DNA of 64,000 nucleotides from an uncultured Cytophagia bacterium. Its GTDB lineage: Bacteria > Zhuqueibacterota > Zhuqueibacteria > Residuimicrobiales > Krinioviventaceae. Numbering within the stretch: the stretch's first letter is position 1; every line of letters starts with the position of its first letter. Positions 17,101-33,150 of this stretch are shown here, in pieces. Position numbers and translations under genes: made by a program. The DNA lies in NCBI GenBank assembly GCA_964607755.1, contig CAZSMC010000006.1, positions 19,955-83,954 on the forward strand. The letters are read 5' to 3'. The notes beneath the pieces are model-generated. The model was not told the origin of the DNA. It worked only from the letters and a program-made list of their open reading frames with translations, and did not search any database.

Positions 17101-17318
17101 TTGCTCCCGCTTATCTGAACACATGAATGGAGATTCGTCAACGCTGACGGTTCCACGTTCTCGAAACGGATGATAATCGTAGCGTTTCGTGCAACGCGGG
17201 TCGAATTGGCTTCGGGATAGAGATATTGATAATCATCCGGGATTTCAGCAGAAACGATCAGCGGGAATAAAACGAGCAACAGCCCATACATCAACCTATG
17301 TAAAAAACGATTTCGCAT
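14148..17318 (-). CDS. ASST-family T9SS cargo protein, paralogue B, with an extra ~200-aa ConA-like/DUF1349-like jelly-roll insert before the C-terminal domain
   Basis: 1056 aa. Same architecture as paralogue A ('FPHMNAIDIDEDGHILLSSRHLSEVTKI', 'VRECCIQEFT'). The insert contains '...FHYAYQRVEGNVELSARVLSMSDTHEWAKAGVMIRNS...'. C-terminus 'YPNPFNTSTTISYFVP...'. Confidence 0.8.
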   Translation of the reverse strand: MRNRFLHRLMYGLLLVLFPLIVSAEIPDDYQYLYPEANSTRVARNATIIIRFENVEPSALTNLHSCVQISGSKSGNLTGNTKIASDDETIIFTPQQKYVPGERVTVTISPQVTGTLNKTIQPTSFEFKVTPNNEPLPDFVMPDERDEKVQPSLSKPDAVGRAMIMPNGVSVPSDFPHIDVFVNKNPGDGYIFINNWRNEGPYNIIFDNDGSPVWYHRFKDGDRRRDFKVQKNGTITMLARDGGHRFVNYDINFNQIDEFKAVDGYGTDEHGMQLLENGHYLLIGRRNDTVDMSQYVAGGKTNANVRECCIQEFTPDHEKIFQWRAWDNFDPADIIGYCEPNEADPRANSFRFPHMNAIDIDEDGHILLSSRHLSEVTKIHRQTGQIIWRLGGANNEFEFVNDELNGFNMQHDIRVLGDNHYTVFDNGNLHNPKQSRAVEYVLDTEKMTATLVWECRGSDNRNYYTHYMGNAQRLPNGNTLINWVKSNSPKAMEVTPDGNVVYEMNFVDGYHTYRTFRFPWDGVVEKPLLFVEQGSDNVTLVFNKFGDSNVEYYNIYGDNAPNPTTVVDTSKATLAKITGLPNDQRYYFRVTAVDDQGVESDFSNEEDIYVNLVSPGDNMVRNGNFSNSTNKWDFAVTNAEAQVDVTSEGFCHININNGGDDFRNVQLKQENIPIVRGEKYVFEFDAYSESNRAIDAKIERAESPYENYGKINPTPLGRTKRHFSYEFLMENPSDYKARIVFNCGGASEDVYIDNVSLKNIDDDLPLRELSSPWMHRDIGQTSIEGDAGIWQDRYVVKGSGDDIWGNRDEFHYAYQRVEGNVELSARVLSMSDTHEWAKAGVMIRNSLHAAAKHAMMCATVNNGMAFQRRIEKNASSHNTNKGDLKMPYWIKLVRRGNIFTGYESADGESWNYVDSEQIDMNETVYIGLAVTAHNDNALCEAHFDNFQIVNDTSVLEGGETRVPDTFELYPAYPNPFNTSTTISYFVPEAANVKLRVYNIRGEEIAELVNRTHQTGQHSIDFDASDKSTGIYFYEMQAKSAKSKNRYQAVKKMIFVK

Positions 17319-17366
17319 TTTGATTTATCCTCGTTGATTATAAATTAAAATTAACAGAAATGAAAC

Positions 17367-19913
17367 TCATTTGAGAATTGACATTTTTTTGATATCTTGC
17401 CACATGTACTTCCCTTCCGCGGTTTGTGCATGCATTTTTATAAAGTAAAGACCGGAACTTAAATTATTCGATTCAAAACCGACCCGATGCCATCCTTTTT
17501 CCACATCGTGATCGATAAGATTCTCCACCATTTGACCGGCAATATTGTAAACAGAGAGATTGACGCCACTTTTTTCCGGGACATGGAACGCAATAGTAGT
17601 CGACGAGTTGAACGGATTCGGATAGTTATTTTTAAGAATAAAATCCGACGGCAAAGCAGGCTCGTCTTTCTCAACATTCGATTCGTCGACTAGTTTGAGA
17701 GAAATATTATCAATGTACACATCAGCTTCGTACTTGCCAGTATTGATAACCACCCGGGCATTGTAATCGGTTTGATCTTGCATTTCAAACGAATAAGAAA
17801 AATGCCTTTTTCGTGTGCTCAAGGGCGTTAAACCATTTTTGCTATAATTCGTCCACGGGGATTCATCTTCGCCGATTTTGGCTTCGATAGTTCGCGGTGC
17901 ACTGGCCCAGGCATCAAATTCAAAAAGGTACTCTTCACCTTGCACAAGCGTCAGCCCGGCCTGGCGAATCTGGACATCATGTTCATCGCCGCCACCGTTA
18001 TCGATTTTGAAATGAAAAACACCTTCCTCAACCGACCAGACTGCAGATGCACTGCCACGCACCAGCCAGGTCCAGTAGGCAACCCTGTTGTCAAAAGTAC
18101 CATTGGTTACCATATTTGTGCCAGGGTTGATAAAATGGATATCAGCGCTTTCTTCGTTGGAAAAGTCACTTTCCGAGCCGTCTTTGTTGACCGCAGTCAC
18201 CCGGAAATAATACTTTTCACCGGTCTTAATATCTGTGAGCTTTTTCAGCGTTTGTTCCGAAGTCGCTATTACTTTTGTCGGCCGACGATGAGTATCGCCG
18301 TAAATTCGATAATAATCCACATCCGGATCACCGAATTTGTTAAAAATCAGAGTGACATTTGTGGGCGTGGGCTCGACAATTAAGTAGGGTTTTTCCACCG
18401 TGCCATTCCACGGGAATCGAAACGCGCGGTATGTCTTCGCGTCCTGGACAAAATTCATTTCATAAACCTTGTCGCCGTCCGGTGTGACTTCCATGGCTTT
18501 TGGCAGTTTTTCAATCGCCCAGTTGATGAACGTATTGCCATTCAGCAGGCGTTGGGCATTCCCCATGTGGTAGGCATACGTCGGCGGATCTTCCATATAA
18601 CTCCACACCAGGGTGGCTGTGCCTTTTTCTGGATCAATTTCATATTCCAGCGCTCTGGACACCTGGGGATTATGCAGACAGCCATTGTCAAAAATGGTGT
18701 AATGTCCGTTGCCCAATACCCGGACACTGTGCTGATTATAAAAACCGTCAAGCGGATCATCGACAAAATCAAAATCATTATTAGCGCCGCCCAGCCGCCA
18801 GATCATCTCGCCGGTCTGCCGGTCAATTTTTGTCACCTCGCTCAGGCGTTTGCTTGAGAGGATGATATTAGCGTCATCGTCAATATCGATCGAATTCATG
18901 TGAGGAAAACGGAAGGAATCGTGCGTTGGCAAATCATCCGGACTGTAACCGATCATATCGCGGGGATCAAAATTCTCCCAGGCCGGCCATTGAAAAATGA
19001 GCTCACCGTACTCTGTGAATTCCTGAATAGCCGTTTCCCGAACCGTGGCATTCTTTTTTCCTCCGGACACATATTTGCTCATATCGACCTGGAAGGTACG
19101 CCGGCCAAGAAGCAGCACATGACCGTTTTCAAGCACGATGCATTCATGTTCATCTGTGCTGTATCCATTGGTCGCTTCAAACTCGTCAATCAGATTGAAA
19201 TTTTGGTCGAAATTGAGAAATCGCTCGCCCCCATCGCGGGCCAGCATGGTGAGGGTACCATTTTTTTGCACTTTGAAATCACGCCGGCGATCTGAAGTGC
19301 GAAGATACCACACCGGAGAACCGTTGCTGTTGAACATGACATTGTACGGCGTGCCGCCCCAATTATTGATGAAAATATACCCTTCAGCCGGATCTTTATT
19401 CACGCTCACGTTCACGTGCGGAAAGTCACTGGGTACAGAAATGCCATTTGGCATGATGCACGCACCGCCAGCAGTGTTTTGAAGAACATTATTTGATTTT
19501 TTTATTGTGCTTTTTGAGGATTCCGAGAAGGAACAATTCTCCTTGCGAGCTACAGAAAATGTAAAAGTTAAGCGATCCCTATTTACACCATCGATTATAG
19601 GTTTTATTTCAACAGTAATCTTTTCACCGGGGGTAAAGGTCGTTTCGGGATTAAAAGTAATCGTGCGCTCATCTGAAGCCATTTTTGTATACCCGGAGAT
19701 TTTTCCGCTCTGTTGTCCATTTACAGCAATTATTTTATTCAGATTTGTAATTTTTTGCGGTGAGAGTTCTGAAAATCGAACGATAATCGAGGCGTGTCTG
19801 GAGACGTGAGTTGCATTCGGCGAAGGGGAAAGATACTGTATGTGTTCACGCTCCAATGAAAAAATGGAGCTCACAAAAAACAATGTTAGAATAAAAAAAA
19901 GTGATTTTTGCAT
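17367..19913 (-). CDS. ASST-family T9SS cargo protein, paralogue C (SSRH changed to SSKR; ECC changed to ETA)
   Basis: 848 aa. 'FPHMNSIDIDDDANIILSSKRLSEVTKI', 'VRETAIQEFT'. CBM-like and T9SS C-terminal domain ('YPNPFNSSTTIAFHVP') present. Confidence 0.8.
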   Translation of the reverse strand: MQKSLFFILTLFFVSSIFSLEREHIQYLSPSPNATHVSRHASIIVRFSELSPQKITNLNKIIAVNGQQSGKISGYTKMASDERTITFNPETTFTPGEKITVEIKPIIDGVNRDRLTFTFSVARKENCSFSESSKSTIKKSNNVLQNTAGGACIMPNGISVPSDFPHVNVSVNKDPAEGYIFINNWGGTPYNVMFNSNGSPVWYLRTSDRRRDFKVQKNGTLTMLARDGGERFLNFDQNFNLIDEFEATNGYSTDEHECIVLENGHVLLLGRRTFQVDMSKYVSGGKKNATVRETAIQEFTEYGELIFQWPAWENFDPRDMIGYSPDDLPTHDSFRFPHMNSIDIDDDANIILSSKRLSEVTKIDRQTGEMIWRLGGANNDFDFVDDPLDGFYNQHSVRVLGNGHYTIFDNGCLHNPQVSRALEYEIDPEKGTATLVWSYMEDPPTYAYHMGNAQRLLNGNTFINWAIEKLPKAMEVTPDGDKVYEMNFVQDAKTYRAFRFPWNGTVEKPYLIVEPTPTNVTLIFNKFGDPDVDYYRIYGDTHRRPTKVIATSEQTLKKLTDIKTGEKYYFRVTAVNKDGSESDFSNEESADIHFINPGTNMVTNGTFDNRVAYWTWLVRGSASAVWSVEEGVFHFKIDNGGGDEHDVQIRQAGLTLVQGEEYLFEFDAWASAPRTIEAKIGEDESPWTNYSKNGLTPLSTRKRHFSYSFEMQDQTDYNARVVINTGKYEADVYIDNISLKLVDESNVEKDEPALPSDFILKNNYPNPFNSSTTIAFHVPEKSGVNLSVYNIAGQMVENLIDHDVEKGWHRVGFESNNLSSGLYFIKMHAQTAEGKYMWQDIKKMSILK

Positions 19914-19937
19914 AGGTCATCCTTGTAGAGAATGATA

Positions 19938-20726
19938 TTACAATTCTTCTAATAGCTTTTTTGCTTGATGTTTTATCATCGTGTCCGCGGCAAGTCCATG
20001 TGCAACGTCTTCTGTCTCTACAATTTCTTTCAAAAGTCGTTTGGACCGCTCCTGCTGATCCTGTTCCGCCAGAGCTTGAGCAAGATATAATTTATTGAAA
20101 AGATTGTCCGGTGCCATTTTGTAAGCGCGTTCGAGATAGCTCAATGCCTTTTTCTTCGAAGGCCAGGTCAGCACCAAAGGAATTTTAGGTACTTTGCGGT
20201 GAAGCAAACCCAGCATGCGGTAACCCCCGGCATCGAGATAGTCGGCATCGAGTTCGATTGTCTTTTCAGCATGATATTTTACTTTGCCAGCCACTCCCTG
20301 GCGCGCAGAAGTTAAAAGTCCCTGCACTTCTCCCAGGTATCCCCATAAAATCCCCAACCAGCAATGCAGCTCAACCCCCTTTGGATACTCATCAACGACC
20401 TTTTCTCCAAAATCGATAGCGCGGTGGTAAAGTCGCTGTCTGTATTCTTTATCATCAGTGGTAAATGTGGCTTTAAAATAAAAGGCTCGAAGCAGCTTCC
20501 AAACAGCCTCGTATTTTTGCTCACCAGAATTTTCATTGACAGCTTGCCGATACCAGTGAATCGCCTTATTTATGGTTGAAGAATCGGCAAGAATTTTTTC
20601 TTTATTAAAATTTTTGTTCCGTTGTTCAAAAAGGCTGTCTGCACGGGAGAGTGGAGTAGCGGCGGCAAGAGGAAAAGCTAAGAACAACACACAAACAATA
20701 ATACATCGAAATACATTATTTTTCAT
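19938..20726 (-). CDS. Hypothetical secreted alpha-helical (TPR-like) protein
   Basis: 262 aa. Signal peptide 'MKNNVFRCIIVCVLFLAFPLAAA'. Repeated amphipathic helices with W/Y/L spacing typical of TPR-like folds. Confidence 0.45.
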   Translation of the reverse strand: MKNNVFRCIIVCVLFLAFPLAAATPLSRADSLFEQRNKNFNKEKILADSSTINKAIHWYRQAVNENSGEQKYEAVWKLLRAFYFKATFTTDDKEYRQRLYHRAIDFGEKVVDEYPKGVELHCWLGILWGYLGEVQGLLTSARQGVAGKVKYHAEKTIELDADYLDAGGYRMLGLLHRKVPKIPLVLTWPSKKKALSYLERAYKMAPDNLFNKLYLAQALAEQDQQERSKRLLKEIVETEDVAHGLAADTMIKHQAKKLLEEL

Positions 20727-21116: not shown

Positions 21117-22649
21117 ATGAATGCAAAATTGAAACTCTTTGCGCTTTGTCTTCTTTCTTTGACTGTCTTTGTTCTGTTAACCTGTGATTCTGATACCGGA
21201 ACAGGACCTGAAAAAGAAAAACCACAAAGTGCTGTTAAAGGAACAGTTACATTCACCGGCGAATGGCCGGCAGCTCCATCAGAGGTTCGCATGGTTGCTT
21301 CTGTATCGTTTCCACCAGCCTCTGCGGATGATTTGATTTTAGGAGAATCCATTCCTCAAGATGTCTCTTCGTACGATTACACATTAAAACTGGATCCTGG
21401 TAAATACAGACTCATTGGTGTGGCCTGGCGCACATCAGATGCTGAGTGGACTCTATCCAACATTTGCGGCGTTTACATTGCCGGCGGTGATCCGTTTATC
21501 CCGGGCGTGGTGACACTGGGAAATGAGGATTCCGTGGCTGAAGATATTGACTTTTCAGTAGACCGCTCAATCGCCAAACCAGCAAGTCAAGCTAAAATTG
21601 AAGGATCGGTACATTTTGAAGGACAATGGCCACAGGAATATACGCATGCCATTGTTGTGGGATCGACAAACGATCCGTTTTCCGATTCGTTTTCACTTTT
21701 TGATTTGAGCTTTGGCAACGTCATCGAAAAAGGCACTCAATCGATAAATTACACCATAAACGCACAACCTGCCACGTATCAGGCGATTGGAGTGTTATTT
21801 TTTAATGTGAACGAATCAATTTCTGGAGAAGCGTTTTATTATTCCCAGAACGTCAATGCGCTGTCCATTGTGCAAGTGACTGTGGGGGCGAATCAGACTG
21901 TGGCTGGCCCTGATTTTGATATTAAATTTACCGTAGCAAATAGCGGTATCAAAGGTACAGTCATATTTACCGGAAGCTGGCCGGCTCCTCCGGCTGAAGT
22001 ACGGCTCGTTGCTACTGAAACGTTCCCACCCAGTCTGGATGACCTGATTATTGGTGAGTCGCTGCCGGCAAACCAGCAATCTGCAAATTACTTTTTCCAT
22101 CTTGCGCCTGGCAGCTATAAAGTTGTGGGTGTGGCCTGGCGCGCTGAAAGCCAGAGCTGGGCATTGACAAGTATCTGTGGCGCGTATTTCGCGGGTGAGG
22201 ATTCTCTGTCGCCAACCGAGGTTGTCATTCCTTCGGAAGATTCTGTGATTGAAAATGTCAACATGAAAGTGAATCGTACCAAAGCCAGGGAAGTCACGGA
22301 TACTAAAATCGCCGGCAGTATTGAATTTCAGGGCGAGTGGCCGTCTGACATTATCGAAGCCCGGGTTATCGCCACGACAAAGTTCAATATTTTCCCCACA
22401 GAATTGCCAACCATGCTGGACCTTGGATTTAGCGATGGCATCGAACCGGGAACTGCGCAAGTTGATTATTTGATCCAGGCTTTTCCGGGGACTTTTGTGG
22501 CAACCGGGGTGTTATTCTTCCGTGAAGGCCAGAAATTGACCATGAATGATATTTTTTATTCGCTCGATGTCAATGGACTTGACTTGTCACAATACAAAGT
22601 CGAGAGAAATAAAACAGCAGATGGGCCGGATTTTGTGATTCAGTTTTAG
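21117..22649 (+). CDS. Hypothetical lipoprotein built from four tandem ~120-aa repeats in an (AB)(AB) arrangement
   Basis: Lipobox 'VLLTC'. Repeat starts 'VKGTVTFTGEWPAAPSEVRMVA', 'IEGSVHFEGQWPQEYTHAIVVG', 'IKGTVIFTGSWPAPPAEVRLVA', 'IAGSIEFQGEWPSDIIEARVIA'. Confidence 0.6.
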   Translation: MNAKLKLFALCLLSLTVFVLLTCDSDTGTGPEKEKPQSAVKGTVTFTGEWPAAPSEVRMVASVSFPPASADDLILGESIPQDVSSYDYTLKLDPGKYRLIGVAWRTSDAEWTLSNICGVYIAGGDPFIPGVVTLGNEDSVAEDIDFSVDRSIAKPASQAKIEGSVHFEGQWPQEYTHAIVVGSTNDPFSDSFSLFDLSFGNVIEKGTQSINYTINAQPATYQAIGVLFFNVNESISGEAFYYSQNVNALSIVQVTVGANQTVAGPDFDIKFTVANSGIKGTVIFTGSWPAPPAEVRLVATETFPPSLDDLIIGESLPANQQSANYFFHLAPGSYKVVGVAWRAESQSWALTSICGAYFAGEDSLSPTEVVIPSEDSVIENVNMKVNRTKAREVTDTKIAGSIEFQGEWPSDIIEARVIATTKFNIFPTELPTMLDLGFSDGIEPGTAQVDYLIQAFPGTFVATGVLFFREGQKLTMNDIFYSLDVNGLDLSQYKVERNKTADGPDFVIQF

Positions 22650-22857: not shown

Positions 22858-23070
22858 AGATGTCAGATTATCTCCACCTAACCCAGGTTCGACACTTTAA
22901 TGTTAAATTCAATATTTACAATAAAAGAACAGGTCTTCACTACACGGGATTAGGGAATCATTTTTATTGTAAATAATGAACTTAAATCAAAAATAATTTA
23001 TAAAATAGCCAAAATATAAAACAACTGTCGAACTTGGGCTAATAACCAAGGTAATACATTTGCCATAAAA

Positions 23071-23100
23071 AAAAGTCCGGTAAAAATTTACCGGACTTTT
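23071..23100. terminator. Bidirectional rho-independent terminator between convergent genes
   Basis: A8 (23066-73), then GTCCGGTAAA-aa-TTTACCGGAC (23075-23096), then TTTT. A perfect 10-bp-arm palindrome flanked by an A-run and a T-run. Confidence 0.6.
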
Positions 23101-23134: not shown

Positions 23135-24220
23135 TCAACTCAGAAACGTCTCATAAATCGGGGCATAATCTTGTCGAATCTTTTCCTCATCCAGACCAAA
23201 TTTTTCCAGACTGTATTTATGTTTGCTCTTGTAATTTCTTTGCTTTTCTGCGGTTTCCTGAATGGTTTTTTGCAGTTCAGATGACGGTTTTTCACCAATA
23301 AAGTCCATAATCTCGTTCATCAGATTATCAAAATTCTGCATCAGTCGCGGAAACGTGACGACTTTGACCTTATCTTTTGGGATTTTACCAGATACATAAT
23401 CATTATAGAATTTCATCGACAGCTCCAGAAACGCATCGTAAAGACGATCGATGTATTTCTGCCGTGTCTCTTCCGGCAAATTCCAGAATCCGAATCGGCC
23501 GTCAAGGACGCCAGTGACCAGACTTAATCCCGAAGGCACAGTGCTGAGCGGGTCCCTCACCATGTACAGGATTTTAGCATCAGGGAATTCGTTTAAAAAG
23601 CGGGGAATGCGAACGCCAAGCGAAAACAACTTGCCAATCACCCGGTCGCGTTTTTCGCTGATAAGATTGCGGCGCCATATTTTTCTCAGCCAGCTAAAAT
23701 CACGTTTTGAGGTATCGCGAATGTCGGGATCGAACATCTCTTTTGGATCGTCTTCAGACCAGGCGAGGAAAAAGCCATAAACAAAAAAGCCGTCAAAGTA
23801 ACGGAAAAGCAAGGAAGGATCATCGGTTTCAATGCCGGTCAGGCTTGTTTTGTGCGCAGCCGCTTCGTGGAACCGAGCCGGGCTCATTTTTTCTAGCAGG
23901 GGCAGAAAAGGTTTTAATAGTGTTTGCAAAACCAGCGAGGGGTAAAGCATTTTCCAGATTCGCATCCCGGAACCAAGTCCGTTTTGGACTAAAAAGCGCT
24001 GCAAAAAGGTCGTGCCGGTTCTGGGATTACCCACAATAACCACCGGATTTTTCACCCGTTTTTTCCACAATGACGGAAAAAAGACATAGTCCAGAATCAT
24101 GCCAATAGAGACGATTACATAGAGCAGCAAAAATCCGATAAACATGGGCAGGAGAGCGAACCATTTATGAAACGTGTGACCAACTGCCTTGAAAACCATG
24201 ATCATTCGAGAAAGCATCAA
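23135..24220 (-). CDS. Membrane-anchored PAPS-dependent sulfotransferase (Sulfotransfer_3-like)
   Basis: 361 aa. N-terminal transmembrane segment. 5'-PSB P-loop 'VIVGNPRTGTTFLQRFL'. 3'-PB-like 'LYMVRDPLSTVPS'. Confidence 0.7.
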   Translation of the reverse strand: MMLSRMIMVFKAVGHTFHKWFALLPMFIGFLLLYVIVSIGMILDYVFFPSLWKKRVKNPVVIVGNPRTGTTFLQRFLVQNGLGSGMRIWKMLYPSLVLQTLLKPFLPLLEKMSPARFHEAAAHKTSLTGIETDDPSLLFRYFDGFFVYGFFLAWSEDDPKEMFDPDIRDTSKRDFSWLRKIWRRNLISEKRDRVIGKLFSLGVRIPRFLNEFPDAKILYMVRDPLSTVPSGLSLVTGVLDGRFGFWNLPEETRQKYIDRLYDAFLELSMKFYNDYVSGKIPKDKVKVVTFPRLMQNFDNLMNEIMDFIGEKPSSELQKTIQETAEKQRNYKSKHKYSLEKFGLDEEKIRQDYAPIYETFLS

Positions 24221-24242
24221 AATCCTCCGTTATATATTTTCC

Positions 24243-25211
24243 TTACCATTGCACCAGCGCAAAAGCAACAGACAAACCGGCTCCGGTCCCGCCAAGGAGC
24301 AACAGATCACCACGTTTTAAAAGTCCCTTTTCATCAGCAATAGCCAGGGCCAGCGGCGTGGACGACGCAATCGTATTTCCGTATTCTGCGATAATATTGA
24401 CAACTTTGCTCTGTTCAATCCCATAGTCGCTTGCCAGATCCAAAGCTGGTCCCGATGCCTGATGAGGGATGAGCCAATCGATATCTTTGGCGCCCAGACC
24501 ATTGCGGCTCAATAAATCTTCCAGGGCATCCCTGACACGCTTCCTTGCCATGCGATAAACTCGTGTGCCTTTCATATGAAAAAGATTGTCCTCCGGCTTG
24601 GTCTTTTCCGGATGCCCGGGTGGATGCTTTGTCCCGGCACCGCGAAATTCGGTGAACTCGGCGCCTTCCGGCCAGGTGTTCATTTCCCAATCGATAATCC
24701 GGCTGTTTTCCGAATCGGGCGTTTTTTCCACAACGGCAGCAGCGGCCGCATCTCCGAATAGCGATGCACTTTCCGGTTCTTTCATATTTCGCCAGGGCGT
24801 TCCGGTTTCAGAAGAGACGATTAATATTTTTTTGTACATATCTGTTTGCAGCAGTGTTGCCGCATTCATCAAAGCGACAACAAAAGAAAGACAGGTAGCG
24901 TGCACTGACCAGGACGGAATGCCGTTGTAACCAAGCTGCCGCATAATGAAAACTGAACTGTCAGGAAGAAGTTGAAGCGGAGTGGTCGACGCGTTCAGCA
25001 GACAATCCGGAGCGCGGTTATCCCCGAGCGCCATCTGTGCTGCTTTTGCACCCATCACTTCCATAGATTCTTCGGCAATGTGCCGATTGATGACGCCAGT
25101 GCGCGATTTTATCCACTTTGCGCTGCGGCCGATTTTCGGCGCCAGGTCTTCAGCCGTCTCGACTTTTGGCGGAGCACAATAGCCGGTTGATACAATTTTT
25201 ATGTTTAGCAT
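24243..25211 (-). CDS. FabH-like 3-oxoacyl-ACP synthase III family ketosynthase/acyltransferase (second copy, not in the fab cluster)
   Basis: Start moved to 'MLNIKIVSTGY' (ATG complement at 25209-25211, AAAGGA RBS). Cys-His-Asn triad context 'HATCLSF', 'PHQAS', 'YGNTIASS'. 22 nt upstream of the sulfotransferase. Confidence 0.7.
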   Translation of the reverse strand: MLNIKIVSTGYCAPPKVETAEDLAPKIGRSAKWIKSRTGVINRHIAEESMEVMGAKAAQMALGDNRAPDCLLNASTTPLQLLPDSSVFIMRQLGYNGIPSWSVHATCLSFVVALMNAATLLQTDMYKKILIVSSETGTPWRNMKEPESASLFGDAAAAAVVEKTPDSENSRIIDWEMNTWPEGAEFTEFRGAGTKHPPGHPEKTKPEDNLFHMKGTRVYRMARKRVRDALEDLLSRNGLGAKDIDWLIPHQASGPALDLASDYGIEQSKVVNIIAEYGNTIASSTPLALAIADEKGLLKRGDLLLLGGTGAGLSVAFALVQW

Positions 25212-25317
25212 GGAATATTCTTTCCTTTTATCCCACGATTCATCCGCGCCCGGTTTGCATATTGCGGCCGGATCAATCATTTGGCGACCGATCATGGATC
25301 AGTCGCCAATCGTTCTT

Positions 25318-28185
25318 TTAGTTAATGACCATCATTTTTCGCGTTTTGGAAAAGTGACGGTCAACTGTTAAAGTATAAAAGTAAATACCTGAGGTCAACT
25401 CGTGGGCATCAAAATTGACCCGGTACTCATTGGCTTGCTGAACCTCGTTGACGAGCGTTTTAACGTGCTTGCCAAGGACGTCGTAAACCTTTAACGTCAC
25501 ATGCCCGGCTTTTGGTATGTGATAGGTGATGGTGGTTTGAGCATTGAACGGATTCGGATGATTCTGCAAAAGTGAGTAATCTGAAATAACGCTTTCATGC
25601 TCTTCTACCAAAACACCGGATGTGATACTGAACGACTGACTCTTGTCATTGACGTTGGCGTCTGCTAAACTCTTGATTAAAATCTGATAATTTGACCCCT
25701 CACTTAAACTCACGGGGATATCCCATGAATATCCCCCGGAGCTATAGGTGGTGTCAATTGTCATGTAAAATGAATCGTTTTTGTAAAGCTCGATAATAAC
25801 ATCACTTTTGATAATGTCATCCCAGGTGATGAAATGTTCGATTCCGCGCTGCCACTTTGTACCACTTTTTGGTAAAATGATGGAAATGTAAGGCGCTTCT
25901 GTCTTGAACGATTGCGACGGCGACCATGCACTCTCACCCACGCTGTTGAATGCCTTGACCCGCCAGTAATACGTCGAATTATTTTCCGCAGATTCAACAT
26001 TATAAACGGCAGGCGAGATAAATTCTTCATCGACAATCAAATTGGTAAATGCCTCATCCGAGGCAACCTGCAAATGATACGAATCAGCATAACCCACCGG
26101 ATTCCATTCCAGTCGGACCGGTTGTGTCTGATCCACAGACACTCCATCTCGCGGACTGACAAGCAGCGGCGGGAACGTTTGCGACTCGTAATCCGGATAA
26201 CCCAAAGCAAATTCACCAAATTTCGTCATTGTGGCTTCGACTTTGTTTGTTGCCGGATTGTAATTTGTCGGCAAAGGAATGAACAATCCTCGGCCTTCGA
26301 ATTCCCGATGATAAACCACGATTGAATCCGGATTTTCAAACGCGTAAAAATCGGCATCAAAAGAAATTTTTGCTTTTATATTCGATATGTTAAATTGAGA
26401 AACAACAATCCGTTCAGGACGAATAATGGGTGCTTTGCCCAGCCATTGCGGCGAAACAGGTGCATAATTGTAGCGTTTCACTCTGGCTTCGTTATAGCCA
26501 AACCCGCCCATTTCATTGAACTTGAGACTGACTCCGGTTTTCTGATCCGCCGTATCAAAAGTATATGTATTTCCCACCAGCAGCTCGAACAACATGACAT
26601 TGGCAGCCGGCGCCCCGCGTTCCCAGTTGAATCGAAACGCGCGATAACTGGCTGTCAGCGGTTTATCGAATTTTAATTCGAGAACCACGTTGCCATCAGG
26701 ATCGACTTCGCTGATAGCGGCTTTGCCGTACATTGCCCCCATGCCCCATCCAATTACAGTGTTGCCATTTGATAAGCGTTGAGCGCTTCCCATTGTAGGA
26801 GTAAAAATATCCGGGTCATGACGGAATTCCCAGACCTTTTCTGCGGTCATGGCTTTCTCATCTATTTCATACTCGACGGCCCTGGAATAGGGGCGATTAA
26901 AACCGTGATGCTGATCACCGCCATCGAACATGATGATATTGCCATTGGGCAAGCGGCGCACATCGTGCTGAAACATGAAATACAAGGGCGCAAATGGCTC
27001 GCCGGTATCATCGGTGATGTCAAACTGGTTGTTCTTACCACCCATCCGCCAAATAATGTCTCCTGTTTGACGGTTGACTTTTGTAATTTCCGCAAGAGCC
27101 AATGTGGAAACGAGGAGATGACTGTCATTGTCCAGTTCAATGGAATTGATATGGATGGCATCAAAAATCGGCTGCGTCAGATCGTTATAGGAATCCGTGA
27201 GTTTATAATGATCCCAGCTTCGCCATTGAAAAATAACATTTTTATCGACATCGAGTTCTTGAATAACAGAACCGGCCACCATAGCGCCGGGGTGACCGCC
27301 GTCCACGATTTTACTCATATCCACAGGCTGTAAATCGTAACACACCATCATAACATGACCGTTGGGTAGCATCTGAAATTCGTGAAAATCAGCAATATAA
27401 CCATTACCCATCTGATAATTATCAACCACACTATAAGTGCTGTCCATGATAAAAAATTCCGTGTCACCGCCGCCGCCAAACTGATAAAACTCGGAAATCA
27501 CGCCATAGCACAGCATGCCGTTAGGCAGCACTTTGAAATCAACCGGTGCCCCGGTGGTAATTTTGTTCCAATATTGAATGGACTCGTCGTTATTGATAAT
27601 GAGATTATAGCCGTTGCCTGTTACAAAATGAGTGGCAGAGAGAAAGAGCGAGCCTTTTGCTGTTTCGCCGGTTTTGGTGATAGAAAAATGCGGGAAACCG
27701 GTGGGCAAACTATCAGCCATGGTTTTCCCCAGTGGCATAGCAGGCTGATCCGGAACAAGCCAGCTACTCAGCTCTTTTTGGTATGTACTCGGATTCACAG
27801 GTTGTTCCAACGGTGTGACTTTGAATTGAAAAGAAAACGCCGGCACAGCGGTCCCGTCCTGGGTTCGGCATCCTTCCTTTAAAGAGATAGTGACCGTTTC
27901 GGACGGATCAAAACGCTGATCTGGTTTGAAAATGACTGTTTTTTCATCTGGTGAGAATACTATCGTTCCGGAATGTTCTCCGCTTTTTGAGCCAATCACA
28001 GAAAATTTTTCTTTATCAAAGGTGGATCGATCAATAATTTCACCCGGACGAATAATGATATTATTACTTCGCGGAACGAACCTCGCTCCATCGAGCGGAA
28101 AAATATATTCCACAGAAGATGGTTTTGCAGCAAAAAGAATGGTTGTTACTGCGAGAATACAAAGGATGAGAGTAAATTTTTTCAT
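25318..28185 (-). CDS. Divergent ASST-family T9SS cargo protein, paralogue D (SSRH changed to STLA; no CBM4/9; two FN3-like domains)
   Basis: Start at 'MKKFTLIL' (GAGGAG RBS 11 nt upstream), not the ORF-track ATG at 28203. 'IHINSIELDNDSHLLVSTLALAEITKVNRQTGDIIWRMGG', 'YSRAVEYEID'. C-terminus 'HPNPFNAQTTITYHIP'. Confidence 0.75.
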   Translation of the reverse strand: MKKFTLILCILAVTTILFAAKPSSVEYIFPLDGARFVPRSNNIIIRPGEIIDRSTFDKEKFSVIGSKSGEHSGTIVFSPDEKTVIFKPDQRFDPSETVTISLKEGCRTQDGTAVPAFSFQFKVTPLEQPVNPSTYQKELSSWLVPDQPAMPLGKTMADSLPTGFPHFSITKTGETAKGSLFLSATHFVTGNGYNLIINNDESIQYWNKITTGAPVDFKVLPNGMLCYGVISEFYQFGGGGDTEFFIMDSTYSVVDNYQMGNGYIADFHEFQMLPNGHVMMVCYDLQPVDMSKIVDGGHPGAMVAGSVIQELDVDKNVIFQWRSWDHYKLTDSYNDLTQPIFDAIHINSIELDNDSHLLVSTLALAEITKVNRQTGDIIWRMGGKNNQFDITDDTGEPFAPLYFMFQHDVRRLPNGNIIMFDGGDQHHGFNRPYSRAVEYEIDEKAMTAEKVWEFRHDPDIFTPTMGSAQRLSNGNTVIGWGMGAMYGKAAISEVDPDGNVVLELKFDKPLTASYRAFRFNWERGAPAANVMLFELLVGNTYTFDTADQKTGVSLKFNEMGGFGYNEARVKRYNYAPVSPQWLGKAPIIRPERIVVSQFNISNIKAKISFDADFYAFENPDSIVVYHREFEGRGLFIPLPTNYNPATNKVEATMTKFGEFALGYPDYESQTFPPLLVSPRDGVSVDQTQPVRLEWNPVGYADSYHLQVASDEAFTNLIVDEEFISPAVYNVESAENNSTYYWRVKAFNSVGESAWSPSQSFKTEAPYISIILPKSGTKWQRGIEHFITWDDIIKSDVIIELYKNDSFYMTIDTTYSSGGYSWDIPVSLSEGSNYQILIKSLADANVNDKSQSFSITSGVLVEEHESVISDYSLLQNHPNPFNAQTTITYHIPKAGHVTLKVYDVLGKHVKTLVNEVQQANEYRVNFDAHELTSGIYFYTLTVDRHFSKTRKMMVIN

Positions 28186-28302
28186 AGTTGTTTTTCTCCT
28201 CAATTCAAAAGTTCCTTTCTGTTCTATTTCCGTTTAGGTAATATGACCTCGCATTATTAGATTTGTAGCACACCTGAAAGGTGTACTACAAGCGTCTTGG
28301 CT

Positions 28303-30879
28303 TTATTTGAGCACTGTTAATTTTTGAATCTTGTCAAATGTGCGTGAACTGTTTGTCGATCTGGCTTGCATGCGATAAAAGTAAAGTCCTGAGCTTAAAT
28401 CAATACGACTTAACTGGATAGCATGCGAACCGGCATTAAATTCTGCATTTACCAGGTCGGCTATTTTTTTGCCCAAAAGATTGTAAATTGATATTTTAAC
28501 GTGACTCTTTTCAGGAACATCGAACGGAATCGTGGTTACCGGATTAAACGGATTGGGGTAATTGCGTTTCAACGCATATTTTCTTGGTGCTGAATCTTGT
28601 TTTTCAACCCTGGTATCGTTCATCATTTTTAAGGTAATATTATCGATATATACATCGGCATTATCGGTTCCGGTATTGATAACCACCCGACTGTTTGCAT
28701 CAGTTGGTTCTTCCATCAGGAATTCATATGAGTAATGTTTTTTGCGCCGCCCCAAAGCGGTCAAGCCGATTTTGCTATAATTGATCCACGGCCCATGATC
28801 CTGCGCCACCTTGATTTCTGCCACACGGGACGCATCTGCCCAGGCATCGAATTCAAATAGATATCTTTCGCCTTCAATAAGCGTGTAACCATTTTGGCGC
28901 AATTGAACTTCCCAAATATTATCTCCGCCCCGCTCAATGTCAAAATGACTGACACCGTCCTCAATTATCCATTCTGCCCGCGCACTACCGCGAACTTCCC
29001 ATGTCCAATTATTTTTATGCTGAGAAAAATCACCGTTAATCATCATGTTATCACCGGGCTCGACAAAATTGACCATAATATCTTTTTCTTCAGAAAAAGC
29101 GCTTTCGGTTCCATCCTTGTTGACCGCCGTGACACGGAAATAATAACGATGACCGTTTTCCAGGCCGGTGAGTTCTTTTAACGTTGCTTTTGACGTATCG
29201 ATAACTGTTGTGGGATGACGTTGGGTACCACCGTAGATATTATAATAGTCCACATCCGGATCGCCGAATTTGTTAAAGATCAGAGTTATATTGTTATATT
29301 TCGGTTCGACAAACAAATTCGGCTGCAGCGCCATGCCGTTCCATGGAAAACGAAACACCCGGTAGCTGTGATAACGCTGGACAAAATTCATCTCGTAAAC
29401 TTTTTCGCCGTCCGGTGTCACTTCAGTACTTTTGGGAAGTGAGCCGTCGGCCCAGTTTATATGCGTATTTCCATTTGGCAGCCGCTGGACATTGCCCATC
29501 CAGTGCGAGTACTTGTCCGGATTATCACGAAAACTCCATACCAGCTCGGCAGTCAAATTCTCGGTATCAATTTCATATTCCAGTGCACGCGAGACCGGAG
29601 GATCATGCTCGTTACCGTTATCAAAAACAGTGTAATGGTTATTACCGAGAGCGCGAACAGAGTGCTGGTTTTCGAATCCATGCAGCGGATCGTTGATGAA
29701 TTCAAAATCATTATTTTCGCCGCTCAATCTCCAAATAATCTCACCTGTCTCCCGGTCGATTTTTGTCGCCTCACTCAGATGCCGACTTGACAAAACGATA
29801 TTGCCGTCATCATCAATATCAATCGAATTCATGTGCGGAAAGCGGATATATCCGCTGGTCAAATCATTTTCACCCGGTACATAGGTATCGCGAATATCAA
29901 AATTATCCCAGGCACGCCACTCAAAAATCAATTCATGTTCCGGCGTAAATTCCTGGATGCAGCATTCACGAACTGTGGCATTTTTCTGGCCACCGTCCAC
30001 ATATTTGCTCATATCCACTGTTTCAGTCCGGCGACCGATAAGCAGATAATGCCCGTCTTCCAAAAGCTGCATGCCGTGTTCATCAGTAGCGTATCCATTA
30101 ACCGCGTGAAAAGAATCGACGACTGTGTAATTGTGATCTAATTCAATAAATCCTTCACCAAACGGATAACCAGTGCGCACCAGCATGGTTAGATTGCCAT
30201 TCTTCTGAACTTTGAAATCCCGGCGCCGGTCCGGAGTTTTCATGTACCAGATAGGCGAGCCGTCGCTTTCAAGAATCAGATTGTACGATTGTCCTCCCCA
30301 GTTATTAAGGAACAGATAGCCATCAGATGGATTCTCGTTGATAAAAACTTCGATGTGCGGAAAATCACTCGGCACAGACACGCCATTTGGCATAATCCTG
30401 GCTGTGCTTTGCAAATTCGTTTTTGACACAGATTTTTGCAGTGCGCAATGCTTTTCTTGTTCATCTTTTGTGAGCGCAATATCAGTGTAATTTTCACCCA
30501 CAGAAACAGTAAACTGGTAATTCAAATTTTTTACATGAACATTCTTGGCAGAGAACCGCGGCGACACAGTCACTGATACGCGTTCACCAGGAGCAAACGG
30601 CGTATCCGGTTCAAAAATAACGGTGTTACCATCTGAAGCAATTTTTGTGCGGCCCGTATATTCTCTATTTTCCTCATCCCTTACTTTAAGAAAAGAGGAT
30701 AAATTCGTAATGTGTGTTGGCGCAATTTCATCAAACCGCATAATAATGGTTGAATGCTTTGACACATGAACAGCATCAGGTTTGGGAAAAAGATATTGAT
30801 AACCCATATCTCGAAAAGAAGAAAATGAACAGCCGATTAAAAGAAAAAATACAAAAATGATTTTTTTTACATCAAACAT
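28303..30879 (-). CDS. ASST-family T9SS cargo protein, paralogue E
   Basis: 858 aa. 'FPHMNSIDIDDDGNIVLSSRHLSEATKI', 'VRECCIQEFT', CBM-like 'MINGDFSQHKNNWTWEVRGS...'. C-terminus 'YPNPFNPVTTIPFDVP'. Confidence 0.8.
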   Translation of the reverse strand: MFDVKKIIFVFFLLIGCSFSSFRDMGYQYLFPKPDAVHVSKHSTIIMRFDEIAPTHITNLSSFLKVRDEENREYTGRTKIASDGNTVIFEPDTPFAPGERVSVTVSPRFSAKNVHVKNLNYQFTVSVGENYTDIALTKDEQEKHCALQKSVSKTNLQSTARIMPNGVSVPSDFPHIEVFINENPSDGYLFLNNWGGQSYNLILESDGSPIWYMKTPDRRRDFKVQKNGNLTMLVRTGYPFGEGFIELDHNYTVVDSFHAVNGYATDEHGMQLLEDGHYLLIGRRTETVDMSKYVDGGQKNATVRECCIQEFTPEHELIFEWRAWDNFDIRDTYVPGENDLTSGYIRFPHMNSIDIDDDGNIVLSSRHLSEATKIDRETGEIIWRLSGENNDFEFINDPLHGFENQHSVRALGNNHYTVFDNGNEHDPPVSRALEYEIDTENLTAELVWSFRDNPDKYSHWMGNVQRLPNGNTHINWADGSLPKSTEVTPDGEKVYEMNFVQRYHSYRVFRFPWNGMALQPNLFVEPKYNNITLIFNKFGDPDVDYYNIYGGTQRHPTTVIDTSKATLKELTGLENGHRYYFRVTAVNKDGTESAFSEEKDIMVNFVEPGDNMMINGDFSQHKNNWTWEVRGSARAEWIIEDGVSHFDIERGGDNIWEVQLRQNGYTLIEGERYLFEFDAWADASRVAEIKVAQDHGPWINYSKIGLTALGRRKKHYSYEFLMEEPTDANSRVVINTGTDNADVYIDNITLKMMNDTRVEKQDSAPRKYALKRNYPNPFNPVTTIPFDVPEKSHVKISIYNLLGKKIADLVNAEFNAGSHAIQLSRIDLSSGLYFYRMQARSTNSSRTFDKIQKLTVLK

Positions 30880-31231
30880 AACGAAAATCCTGCGTTAAAT
30901 TTAATAATTATAACCCACAATGCAACAAACTGTTCCGAAGTTCCTTCGAGCATTGAATATTTTTTCAACTTTAATAAATGGATCACAACCCATTATTGAC
31001 CAAAAAGAATTAAAATATGAAAAGTTCAGAATATTGAAGAAAGAGGAAAGATAACAACGAGCAACATTTAAAATTTGTTGAACGTTGAAGAAAGGATTGG
31101 AATATAGACTTTTAATAAAACGCAAATAATGTCGTATGGAAAATCGCAAGCGCGCCGCTTTGTCCTTTCAGGAATTTGAATATATTATTTCGACAAACCA
31201 TAATATACTATTTTATTTTCAAAATTCAATA

Positions 31232-32596
31232 TTAAGGTTTTTGCCACGGCACTTTACCAACCTGTTGGATATGTGCACGCAGTTCTTTTTTCAACTTCTT
31301 AAACATCTCGTGATCTTGCGCCAGAGGATTTTGCTCAAAAGGATCAGAAGACAAGTCGTAAAGCCGGTAATCTTCAAAAGGAGTTTCCTGCACCAACTTC
31401 CAATTTTGGTGCCGTGCCGCATAATAATCCCGGCCGCCGTAGAACCAGCCTTCTCTTCGAACCCAGAATAACGTTCGTTCGTTGAGTTCTTGTTCTTTGC
31501 CCGTAAGCGTAGGCGCGATGCTCTTGCCCTCAATCGGATGGTCTATTTGCACACCCGCCACATCACAAAGCGTCGGGAACCAGTCCATGGTCATGCACAC
31601 CAGATTGCTCGTTGTGTTTGGCTCGATGTGTCCGTGCCACACAGCGCATGTCGGCACTTTTATGCCGCCTTCGTACATGCTTTGTTTGCCCGCACGCAAA
31701 TCGCCGTTATTGGCACCAACTTTTAATTGACCGCCATTGTCGGATGTAAAGATGATCAACGTGTTCTCGTACATTCCGTTTTCTTTTAGTGCTTCAATCA
31801 CTTTGCCAATGCCGTAGTCCATGTGTTCGATCAGTGCCACCAGTTTGGCGCGTTGCTCACTGATGTCCGGTTCGCGTTCACGCACCTTATTCAACCATTC
31901 GTCTGGTGGCTGAACAGGCACGTGCGGTGCATTATAAGCCAGGTACAGAAAGAACGGTTGCTCGGAATTCTGTTGTTCATTGAGATAGTCAACAGCCCAT
32001 TGAGTGAACAAATCCGTTGCATGACCTTCTGGCTCGATAACATCTTTATTCAAACGCATATAGTTTTTATCATGACGAAAGTGGGTGTAATAGTCGTCCA
32101 TCATGTCGCCGAGAAAACCGTGAAAGTGATCGAATCCACGCTCATTGGGAATGTTTGGCGAGTCCAGTCCCAAATGCCACTTGCCAATACAGGCGGTGCG
32201 GTATCCGGCCTGTTTCAACATGGCTGGCAAAAGCACAGCATCCGGTGACAAATAGCCGAAATTGCCACTCGAATAGGAACGAATTACACCGGGCACACCG
32301 ACAAGGTCGGGGTAGCGGCCTGTGAGCAGAGCTGCACGCGTGGGCGAGCACACCGGACAATTGGCGTAAAAATTGTTGAATTTCATGCCATTTACTATCA
32401 GAACATCGATATTCGGAGTGCGCATATCTTTTGCGCCATAACCTGACAAATCGCCGTAACCCAAATCATCAGCCAGGATAAAGAGAATGTTGGGCCGGGA
32501 GTTTTTGTTTGCCCGTGCTTTTTGTGAATATGGTAACGATACGGCTGCCAATCCTGCAGCCGCAGATCTGATGAAATGGCGTCGGGTAATGTTCAT
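31232..32596 (-). CDS. Arylsulfatase (formylglycine-dependent sulfatase), Tat-exported
   Basis: Twin-arginine signal 'MNITRRHFIRSAAAGLAAVS'. Sulfatase signature 'CPVCSPTRAALLTGR' (C-x-P-x-R). 'ILADDLGYGD'. Confidence 0.85.
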   Translation of the reverse strand: MNITRRHFIRSAAAGLAAVSLPYSQKARANKNSRPNILFILADDLGYGDLSGYGAKDMRTPNIDVLIVNGMKFNNFYANCPVCSPTRAALLTGRYPDLVGVPGVIRSYSSGNFGYLSPDAVLLPAMLKQAGYRTACIGKWHLGLDSPNIPNERGFDHFHGFLGDMMDDYYTHFRHDKNYMRLNKDVIEPEGHATDLFTQWAVDYLNEQQNSEQPFFLYLAYNAPHVPVQPPDEWLNKVREREPDISEQRAKLVALIEHMDYGIGKVIEALKENGMYENTLIIFTSDNGGQLKVGANNGDLRAGKQSMYEGGIKVPTCAVWHGHIEPNTTSNLVCMTMDWFPTLCDVAGVQIDHPIEGKSIAPTLTGKEQELNERTLFWVRREGWFYGGRDYYAARHQNWKLVQETPFEDYRLYDLSSDPFEQNPLAQDHEMFKKLKKELRAHIQQVGKVPWQKP

Positions 32597-32661: not shown

Positions 32662-33150
32662 TCAGGGAAGAGGAAAATTTATTGCTGGATCCTCTATGAT
32701 AAATAGCCAGTCGTGTCCCCGACCACTGGTTGGCGGGGTATACGTTTGAATGCCGGCAGTATCGCCCGTATGCACCGGATAAAAAACACCATAGCGGGTG
32801 TCATACCATATTTCTTTTCTTTTTTCAGCTTTTATCCAGGATTTATCGATCAATGCCTTGTCGCCATAAGCATTGGGTTCATCCAGGCCATCGCGTTCAG
32901 CCAAAACCACAGCCTGGATGACAGTAAAACCCTTTTCAGCGCGATTCTCCAGATAAGTCACAGCCTCTTCCCGGTCTAGCCGGTGAAACAATTCCCAGGC
33001 TGTATCGCCGAGATAAAAAAACGATGTGCCGTCACTGAAAACCAGATAGCGGCCGTTTTCACTGACGGTGAGTTGTTTGGGAGAAGCAAAGGTTGAAAGT
33101 GAAAGAAATAAAAAAAAAGCAAGCAATACCGCAATACTTTTATTTCTCAT
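32662..33150 (-). pseudogene. N-terminal fragment of a GH140/DUF4038-family glycoside hydrolase (truncated)
   Basis: Signal peptide, then '[29 protein letters not shown]...', the characteristic DUF4038 start. Only 162 aa, against about 450 aa for the family. The sulfatase gene follows directly. Confidence 0.4.

Follow-up and report, generated by a model that had tools for sequence, protein, structure and literature searches.

A conserved ketosynthase, sulfotransferase and secreted aryl sulfotransferase cluster suggestive of a two-step sulfation relay in Gram-negative bacteria

This study concerns a gene cluster in a stretch of 64,000 nucleotides (hereafter the window) from an uncultured Cytophagia bacterium placed by GTDB in the Zhuqueibacterota (assembly GCA_964607755.1, contig CAZSMC010000006.1, positions 19,955 to 83,954 of the forward strand). 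On the minus strand, the cluster codes for a ketosynthase, a sulfotransferase (ST) of the type that uses 3'-phosphoadenosine 5'-phosphosulfate (PAPS), and several secreted proteins resembling the PAPS-independent arylsulfate sulfotransferases (ASSTs). Together these genes may specify a two-step sulfation relay for the cell envelope or exterior, by analogy an envelope version of the two-step sulfation known from Streptomyces, a reading that we hold with slightly better than even confidence. Gene order, conservation, domains, catalytic residues, predicted folds and nearest relatives were observed directly and are presented below. An initial annotation of this DNA had joined a PAPS-dependent sulfotransferase, ASSTs and a carrier of lipid or polyketide-like nature, produced on site, into one shuttle, coupled to desulfation. 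The shuttle idea gains support because the ketosynthase-ST pair lies by ASSTs across phyla, the ASSTs resemble the caprazamycin sulfotransferase Cpz4, and the ketosynthase resembles MxnB and CorB; the desulfation part does not stand, as discussed below.

The map of open reading frames (ORFs) and family scans recovered all five genes named in the initial annotation, at the same places and on the shared minus strand. Together with a hairpin 3' of ST, they are:

23135..24217, minus strand: ST, PAPS-type sulfotransferase with a predicted membrane anchor, 360 aa (Pfam Sulfotransfer_3)
24243..25211, minus strand: ketosynthase resembling beta-ketoacyl-acyl carrier protein synthase III (KAS III), of the MxnB/CorB-related branch, 322 aa (Pfam ACP_syn_III and ACP_syn_III_C)
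25318..28185, minus strand: ASST-D, the 'core' secreted aryl-sulfotransferase-like protein (Big_5, ASST propeller, Ig-like domains, C-terminal domain of the type IX secretion system, T9SS)
28303..30879, minus strand: ASST-E, secreted aryl-sulfotransferase-like protein (Big_5, ASST propeller, fn3, CBM4_9, T9SS C-terminal domain)
31232..32596, minus strand: formylglycine sulfatase with a twin-arginine translocation (Tat) signal (Pfam Sulfatase)
23067..23100, minus strand: intrinsic-terminator-like hairpin and U-run 3' of ST (folding)

The ORF of ASST-D spans 25318-28203, and the start used by public assemblies, 28185, gives a protein of 955 aa. With this start the gap between ASST-E and ASST-D is 117 nt, one less than the 118 nt first given, while the gap of 106 nt between ASST-D and the ketosynthase is as annotated. 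The 22 nt reported between the ketosynthase and ST hold if ST starts at TTG 24220, and become 25 nt if it starts at the ATG. The hairpin 3' of ST has a 14-bp stem (dG -19.1 kcal/mol, z = -5.2 against shuffles), followed by UUUUUUUU; it was spotted by eye and then confirmed by folding. A generic terminator scan was at background (17 sites against 14.9 expected) and missed this hairpin, and a scan for the sigma-70 consensus, which is uninformative for a non-proteobacterial lineage, gave 53 sites against 27 expected. Because of the short gaps (117, 106 and 25 nt) and the strong terminator hairpin, ASST-E, ASST-D, the ketosynthase and ST look like a single transcription unit.

The conservation of this arrangement was surveyed in the best 80 of 281 genomic ST matches, taken as species-representative loci with up to 10 kb of flank. 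The window proteins were mapped on these loci by tblastn and the flanking ORFs clustered by all-against-all BLAST; ORF calling was mechanical, and the taxon labels are those given by the depositors of the metagenome-assembled genomes (MAGs). An orthologue of the ketosynthase (46-68% identity) is present in 37 of the 80 loci and lies directly upstream of ST in 26, and ASST-like ORFs occur in 55. A subset of 50 loci extends at least 3 kb on both sides of ST. Here, an ASST is found within 10 kb in 36 and adjacent to ST in 31, the ketosynthase in 26, genes for PAPS synthesis (adenosine 5'-phosphosulfate (APS) kinase, CysD, CysNC, sat-cysC) in 12, and an MMPL/RND transporter with a LolA-like protein in 10; three loci have the ketosynthase-ST pair with no ASST nearby. 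The labels of the surveyed loci include KSB1, Ignavibacteria, Bacteroidota, Marinimicrobia, Gammaproteobacteria (Ketobacter, Pseudomonadales) and Alphaproteobacteria. Representative gene orders, with L numbers denoting surveyed loci, are:

KSB1 type (L022), up to ST: ASST, ASST, FadL, ASST-D, ketosynthase, ST
KSB1 type (L022), after ST: repeat lipoprotein, tetratricopeptide-repeat (TPR) protein, outer-membrane protein, MMPL, LolA-like, sat-cysC, APS kinase
Ignavibacteria/Bacteroidota (L013, L021, L032): ASST, ASST, ketosynthase, ST, APS kinase, 3-5 ASSTs
Marinimicrobia (L083): ASST, ST, two unassigned proteins, ketosynthase, leucine-rich-repeat T9SS protein, ASST, MMPL, LolA-like
Gammaproteobacteria (L052): ketosynthase, ST, 416-aa lipoprotein ASST, fatty-acyl-AMP ligase fused to a carrier domain
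L019 and L020: ketosynthase, ST, CysD, CysNC, Pst-like ABC transporter, ASST

The arrangement is, on comparative genomic grounds, more than chance, as dozens of genomes at species level, spread over several phyla, show this adjacency too. The initial annotation had held that its proposal would fall if the adjacency were unique to this genome; instead, linkage of ketosynthase, ST and ASST was found in several phyla.

Five ASSTs are encoded in the window. They score 95-122 bits against a Pfam cut-off of 24.2 (PF05935/PF14269), with ASST-D and ASST-E at 95-105 bits and an E-value of 5e-30 for the Pfam Arylsulfotrans match in ASST-E. All five carry the T9SS sorting domain PF18962 (38.7-42.5 bits, cut-off 27), and ASST-D and ASST-E also match the T9SS model TIGR04183 (36-42 bits, cut-off 23); together with hydrophobic N-termini or signal peptides, this gives the window ASSTs the features of T9SS type A cargo. 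ASST-A, B, C and E share 52-55% identity with one another, while ASST-D shares 32-35% with these. When ASST-D was compared by phmmer with proteins of solved structure, PDB 9KF4 matched at 6e-37 and E. coli AssT at 6e-6. The AlphaFold model of its propeller (mean predicted local distance difference test, pLDDT, 84.7) gave the same order in Foldseek, with 9KF6/9KF4 as the best match (E 3e-29, TM-score 0.76, root-mean-square deviation 2.7 A) and E. coli AssT (3ELQ) next (E 9e-17, TM-score 0.67). The name Cpz4 for 9KF4/9KF6 is that of the Foldseek library annotation. A homologue search with ASST-D found more than 2000 proteins. In every lineage examined the ASSTs are extracytoplasmic, by way of T9SS here, lipoprotein signals in proteobacteria, and dockerin or T9SS domains in Marinimicrobia.

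In E. coli aryl sulfotransferase (EcAST), a sulfo-histidine forms at His436, aided by His252, His356, Asn358, Arg374 and Thr501 (PMC13426309). All five window ASSTs retain the equivalents of His252, His356, Asn358 and His436; in ASST-D the last of these is H413, counted along the 961-aa ORF. The equivalent of Arg374 is present in ASST-A, B and E, which have the full H-H-N-R-H set; ASST-C has K-R with a shift of one residue, and ASST-D has leucine at this position, where its orthologues have a hydrophobic residue or proline. Among the ASST-like ORFs from the surveyed loci, 78 of 113 carry the full set, and the exceptions are mostly the ASST that directly adjoins the ketosynthase-ST pair. In KSB1-type loci, the orthologues of ASST-D have Leu, Val or Met in place of the arginine; in Ignavibacteria/Bacteroidota loci, the ASST just upstream of the ketosynthase reads HHSVH; and the lipoprotein ASSTs of proteobacteria read HHNPH. 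These pair-adjoining proteins without the arginine retain the three histidines and, in most, the asparagine. They are found at:

ASST-D type: L007:6022-8964; L009:5901-8843; L011:1096-3972; L014:11117-14017
ASST-D type: L022:6121-8982; L029:9078-11939; L031:5995-8904
pair-adjoining ASSTs of other lineages: L013:6415-8955; L052:11233-12492

On these residues and positions, we regard them as a distinct 'core' ASST subfamily that is tied to the ketosynthase-ST pair in every lineage. The ASST cluster as a whole was defined by single-linkage BLAST and checked by Pfam on representatives and by the active-site alignment; a few of its members have lost several catalytic residues (L013_3985 reads NNNAN and L032_3513 reads AHDSN).

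The ketosynthase in its 322-aa form (start MLNIKIV) has the length of its orthologues and an intact Cys-His-Asn triad (ATCLSF, PHQAS, YGNT). The label 'FabH-like' in the initial annotation fits its fold but undersells the enzyme, which scores below the NCBIfam cut-offs for FabH (239.8 bits against 402 for NF005541, 222 against 249 for NF006829 and 205 against 292 for TIGR00747). A separate housekeeping fabH, 31% identical to the ketosynthase, lies elsewhere in the window at 50044-51033 in a plsX-fabH-fabD-fabG-fabF operon, and on both counts a housekeeping FabH role was rejected. The best matches of solved structure are 4V2P (5e-50) and 4YUC (2e-49), against 5e-38 for the best true FabH, and a family profile of 27 orthologues ranks the same entries at 269 and 264 bits, against 231 bits for the best true FabH. 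4V2P is MxnB and 4YUC is CorB (PMC5724707, PMC4578411, PMC5506619). Both are stand-alone ketosynthases, placed within the FabH clade, that join two chains head-to-head to give the 4-hydroxy-alpha-pyrone of myxopyronin and corallopyronin (PMC5724707, PMC4578411). The Cys-His-Asn triad is common to all three enzymes, but MxnB and CorB act in trans-AT polyketide synthase (PKS) lines, whereas no PKS or carrier-protein gene adjoins the window ketosynthase. Because identity to MxnB is about 35%, MxnB/CorB-type pyrone formation is a lead suggested by homology, short of proof.

The initial annotation of ST as a membrane-anchored PAPS-type sulfotransferase with the motifs GNPRTGTT and RDP was borne out by Pfam (Sulfotransfer_3 6.5e-15, Sulfotransfer_1 4e-9), by a hydrophobic helix and by the motifs themselves. 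The phosphosulfate-binding loop GNPRTGTT and the 3'-phosphate motif VRDP align with the mycobacterial Stf proteins, a remote relation in sequence. The AlphaFold model of ST (pLDDT 79.6) is closest to STF1 and STF9 (TM-score 0.62-0.69), and the remaining structural matches are all PAPS-dependent sulfotransferases, including the ST domains of CurM and olefin synthase. We infer that the hydrophobic helix 23-46 is a membrane anchor; the charges KKRVK that follow it favour a catalytic domain in the cytoplasm. Full-length homologues with 53-76% identity occur in MAGs of KSB1, Ignavibacteriae, Bacteroidota, Marinimicrobia, Myxococcota, Gamma- and Alphaproteobacteria and Fibrobacterota, and some sources annotate them as the menaquinone-lipid sulfotransferase Stf3.

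Taken together, these features can be arranged as a relay. PAPS is confined to the cytoplasm, while an aryl- or enol-sulfate that dissolves in lipid and offers a good leaving group can get out. Since the ASSTs are extracytoplasmic in every lineage and PAPS is bound to the cytoplasm, a relay is the simplest reading of the cluster. The ketosynthase would condense thioesters derived from fatty acids into an enolic lipid of the 4-hydroxy-alpha-pyrone type, as suggested by MxnB and CorB. The membrane-anchored ST would then sulfate that hydroxyl with cytoplasmic PAPS at the inner face of the inner membrane, both acceptor and topology being predictions. Export of the sulfated carrier could involve the MMPL/RND, LolA-like and outer-membrane proteins found in relatives; in the window, a FadL-like channel and a TPR protein are candidates. 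Finally, the T9SS-secreted ASSTs would take the sulfuryl group onto the conserved histidine, from a donor proposed by reference to Cpz4, and hand it to extracellular acceptors. Glycans are suggested as acceptors because of the CBM4_9 modules and because Cpz4 prefers a sugar hydroxyl (PMC13426309); phenolics are equally possible. A wider version, in which exported pyrone- or enol-sulfates feed surface or secreted Cpz4-like ASSTs across Gram-negative bacteria for the sulfation of glycans, phenolics or the cells' own polymers, is a more tentative proposal that we consider somewhat unlikely as it stands.

The nearest precedent is the sulfation of caprazamycin and liposidomycin. In the passage of PMC6731281 that cites Tang et al. 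(2013, Nat Chem Biol 9:610), a type III PKS supplies a triketide pyrone, the PAPS-dependent Cpz8 sulfates this pyrone, and Cpz4 then transfers the sulfate to caprazamycin; the parts named there are Cpz6 (type III PKS), Cpz8/LipE (PAPS sulfotransferase) and Cpz4/LipB (ASST). The window cluster follows the same logic in uniting genes for a condensing enzyme of the thiolase fold, a sulfotransferase that depends on PAPS and an ASST that does not. Its ASSTs are genuinely homologous to Cpz4, and the predicted 4-hydroxy-alpha-pyrone chemistry of the carrier matches what is expected of an MxnB/CorB-like ketosynthase. The condensing enzyme, however, is KAS III-like here and a type III PKS there, and no type III PKS was found in the window or the related loci. 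ST is a protein of about 360 aa with a predicted membrane anchor and a Sulfotransfer_3/Stf-type domain, whereas Cpz8 is soluble, has about 215 aa and shows no significant similarity. ST was accordingly rejected as a Cpz8/LipE orthologue: tblastn against Cpz8 and Hoch_6098 gave short motif matches at E >= 0.006, with coding sequences machine-read from supplementary file 4 of PMC6731281, a text with errors. The window cluster also differs in its many extracytoplasmic ASST paralogues per locus with carbohydrate-binding module (CBM) and Ig domains, in having no antibiotic scaffold genes, in its occurrence in Gram-negative and mostly uncultured phyla, and in its association with lipid-export genes. 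In the searchable literature we found no description of such a system outside the Streptomyces antibiotic pathways, none of 9KF4, and none linking ASSTs with T9SS, pyrones or these phyla.

Other comparisons place the individual parts. With AssT of E. coli CFT073 (3ELQ) the window ASSTs share the six-bladed propeller, four catalytic equivalents (His252, His356, Asn358 and His436) and an extracytoplasmic location. They are nevertheless remote from it in sequence, have no DsbL/DsbI partners, carry other accessory domains and leave by T9SS; ASST-D lacks the Arg374 equivalent, and a candidate donor-making pair is encoded beside them. The mycobacterial Stf proteins (STF1, 2ZQ5; STF9, 2Z6V), PAPS-dependent and with a lipid acceptor in at least one member, are the closest to ST, at about 18% identity. 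Stf3 acts on a menaquinone-derived lipid. We know of no Stf locus with an N-terminal membrane anchor or a tight pairing with a ketosynthase and ASSTs as a feature.

Several points weigh against the relay. The pyrone, the sulfated intermediate and the ASST activity are all predictions. The ASST that is most tightly linked to the pair, namely ASST-D and its orthologues, has no equivalent of Arg374, which aids sulfuryl binding in EcAST. The ketosynthase is 35% identical to MxnB and 31% to the organism's own FabH, with a profile margin of 38 bits, and MxnB and CorB use beta-ketoacyl chains bound to a carrier protein, for which the cluster has no gene. Moreover, in 11 of the 50 loci both the ketosynthase and an ASST are missing from the surroundings of ST; most of these loci bear the labels Myxococcota, Deltaproteobacteria, Chitinispirillaceae or Fibrobacteraceae. 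Searches of the window for MMPL, LolA-like proteins, the ORF families c3 and c4 that recur in related loci, APS kinase, CysDN and sat found none, and the export and PAPS-supply genes must therefore lie elsewhere in the genome. Lastly, the parallel with the caprazamycin system is one of analogy for two of its three parts, as ST lacks homology to Cpz8 and a type III PKS is missing.

Other explanations of the cluster were weighed as well. The pathway could end with the sulfated lipid that the ketosynthase and ST produce, a sulfolipid of the outer membrane like those formed by mycobacterial Stf enzymes, with the ASSTs as T9SS cargo doing a separate job (e.g. trans-sulfation among environmental phenolics) and linked to the pair only by shared regulation or sulfur economy. 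The closeness of ST to STF1/STF9 in fold and sequence, the Stf3 annotation of its homologues, the recurrent MMPL/LolA-like lipid-export genes and the three loci with the pair and no ASST nearby all fit this explanation, which we nonetheless think unlikely. It leaves unexplained why an ASST adjoins ST in 31 of 50 loci across differing secretion routes (T9SS, lipoprotein, dockerin), why a dedicated ASST subfamily stands beside the pair, and why the ASSTs are close to Cpz4, whose donor is a PAPS-sulfated pyrone. The dedicated subfamily, and the further ASSTs that usually flank ST across secretion routes, are the main discriminator among the explanations considered here. Less likely again is a secondary-metabolite cluster of the caprazamycin/liposidomycin type, in which a relay would act on one natural product, encoded at another place in the genome, rather than on extracellular targets. 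Among characterised systems, this three-part logic is known from an antibiotic pathway only, and Cpz4 is the closest solved homologue. However, no scaffold genes (nonribosomal peptide synthetase, PKS or nucleoside-modifying) are present in the window or the surveyed flanks, the 5-8 ASST paralogues per locus with carbohydrate-binding, Ig-like and T9SS domains point to many surface enzymes rather than a single tailoring step, and a cluster for a specialised metabolite would not usually be conserved across phyla with ST at 53-76% identity.

The two remaining explanations question the activity of the ASSTs or the direction of flow. The ASST-like propellers might not be sulfotransferases at all but binding proteins or hydrolases on the same fold, their linkage to ST having another basis. 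ASST-D and its orthologues lack Arg374, the few members noted above (L013_3985 and L032_3513) have lost several catalytic residues, and similar beta-propellers are B12-binding surface lipoproteins in Bacteroides. Set against this are the nucleophilic histidine and the His/His/Asn equivalents in all five window ASSTs, the full set in 78 of 113 ORFs, Pfam ASST scores far over threshold, and Cpz4 and EcAST as top structural matches by a wide margin, so that we give this explanation a slim chance. We place slightly less trust in a reversed, scavenging relay, where ASSTs would load the carrier from environmental aryl or sugar sulfates, the FadL-like protein would import it and ST would regenerate PAPS from 3'-phosphoadenosine 5'-phosphate (PAP). 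Some PAPS-dependent sulfotransferases do re-sulfate PAP from aryl-sulfate donors (PMC13426309), the cluster has an uptake channel of the FadL family, and a sulfatase and glycosidases are adjacent. Yet what recurs next to the cluster is PAPS supply (ATP sulfurylase, APS kinase) and export (MMPL, LolA-like) rather than PAPS reductase and importers, and the sulfatase is not conserved with the cluster.

The sulfatase itself is a good match to its family (Pfam Sulfatase 3e-64, 217 bits; CSPTR motif) and begins with MNITRRHFIRSAAAG, an N-terminus of the twin-arginine type (RRHFIRS). It was described as lying immediately upstream of ASST-E; it does lie upstream, but an AT-rich spacer of 352 nt separates the two. 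No homologue was found by tblastn in 85 related loci, and on this ground and the spacer it was rejected as a member of the module. It adjoins glycosidase genes (an apiosidase-like remnant, GH3 and GH127) and is probably a neighbour that belongs, judging by its surroundings, with these rather than with the conserved module. The desulfation leg of the coupled system proposed earlier loses its footing for the same reasons, namely the missing homologues, the spacer and the glycosidase company. The remnant, which lies between the sulfatase and GH3/GH127, is a 162-aa ORF at 32662-33150 on the minus strand that matches only the first 78 of 320 positions of an apiosidase-like catalytic domain and is joined to the final part of a Collagen_bind_2 domain; it resembles what is left of a glycosidase gene after an internal deletion. 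The GH127 near the sulfatase resembles an aceric-acid hydrolase.

On its other side, the conserved neighbourhood exceeds the coordinates first given (23135 to 32596) and takes in three more ASSTs, the FadL-like channel, the TPR protein and a repeat lipoprotein (9930-22649):

21117..22649, plus strand: repeat lipoprotein, 510 aa (lipobox LLTC; four internal repeats)
19938..20726, minus strand: TPR protein with signal peptide (Pfam TPR_19)
17367..19913, minus strand: ASST-C (Big_5, ASST propeller, fn3, CBM4_9, T9SS C-terminal domain; Pfam)
14148..17318, minus strand: ASST-B (Big_5, ASST propeller, fn3, CBM4_9, DUF1349, T9SS C-terminal domain; Pfam)
11531..14095, minus strand: ASST-A (Big_5, ASST propeller, CBM4_9, T9SS C-terminal domain; Pfam)
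9930..11534, minus strand: FadL/TodX-family outer-membrane channel for hydrophobic molecules (Pfam Toluene_X 4.7e-38)

The FadL-like gene and the stop of ASST-A overlap by 4 nt, and in L022 and L031 FadL orthologues (52-57% identity) have ASST genes on one side and ASST-D/ketosynthase/ST on the other. Orthologues of the TPR protein (51-53% identity) stand beside the cluster in the KSB1-type loci L007, L008 and L022. The protein has a weak match to the NCBIfam model for BstC, a sterol-transport outer-membrane protein (1e-10, 41.5 bits against a cut-off of 350). Relatives encode, close to the cluster, a LolA-like protein and an MMPL protein whose domain is of the sterol-sensing type. The weak match and these neighbours hint at a Bst-like arrangement for lipid trafficking. 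The 510-aa lipoprotein, encoded between ST and the TPR gene, consists of four repeats of about 125 aa and has orthologues (45-56% identity) in the same position and orientation by ST in five KSB1-type loci, L007, L008, L009, L012 and L022. It has no Pfam or NCBIfam match, and Pfam at E <=1 gave nothing usable for it or for families c3 and c4.

Further genes recur beside the cluster in particular lineages. In about 35 loci, as in those of Marinimicrobia (e.g. L083:5999-6586 and L083:9690-11147), ST is followed by two proteins with no Pfam match, a secreted one of about 200 aa and one of about 485 aa whose last residue is aromatic, as in outer-membrane barrels. Both are candidate components of carrier export, for its periplasmic and outer-membrane stages. 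A fatty-acyl-AMP ligase-carrier protein (FAAL-ACP) adjoins the ketosynthase, ST and ASST at L052:12710-14857, with orthologues in L040, L042, L049 and L053. This gene is limited to the gammaproteobacterial versions of the cluster, and its product may deliver the acyl substrate. The flanks of the gammaproteobacterial locus showed no other informative biosynthetic genes. A Pst-like ABC transporter, made up of a PBP_like_2 binding protein, two permeases and a PstB-like ATPase, recurs in or beside clusters of ST, CysDN and ASST in several lineages (L019:13952-17475 and L020; ORF family c11 in L026, L036, L039 and L050); it may transport either phosphate or sulfate.

Elsewhere in the window, 1206-8055 on the minus strand codes for three paralogous methyltransferases of the MttB superfamily, a pterin-binding protein resembling MtrH/MeTr and a small protein with a match to the activation domain of B12-dependent methionine synthase. 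This looks like a set for corrinoid-dependent demethylation of quaternary amines or methylamines. A 2-oxoacid oxidoreductase of the pyruvate:ferredoxin oxidoreductase type is encoded at 53416-55997, and the organism is apparently anaerobic. At 45160-45843 on the plus strand, beside a membrane transporter of the auxin-efflux type, lies a gene whose product is homologous to the eukaryotic Golgi phosphoprotein GPP34/GOLPH3 (Pfam 2.7e-49).

A 2026 review concluded that, Cpz4 apart, next to nothing is known of the donors and acceptors that bacterial PAPS-independent aryl sulfotransferases use in nature (PMC13426309). Here, a candidate donor-making pair is encoded beside a large, multi-phylum clade of Cpz4-like ASSTs, so that the question of the donor becomes directly testable; the gammaproteobacterial loci, which belong to a cultivable lineage (relatives of Ketobacter), are good entry points for experiment. 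The cluster suggests a route for the sulfation of targets that PAPS cannot reach, which is relevant to organosulfur cycling, to sulfated exopolymers and to biocatalysis, where sulfation could draw on a donor that is cheap and can be regenerated. Should the wider version of the relay hold in the abundant uncultured Marinimicrobia, KSB1 and Ignavibacteria, microbes would by this route supply organic sulfate esters to oceans and sediments, and the donor that thousands of ASSTs of one clade use in nature would be identified.

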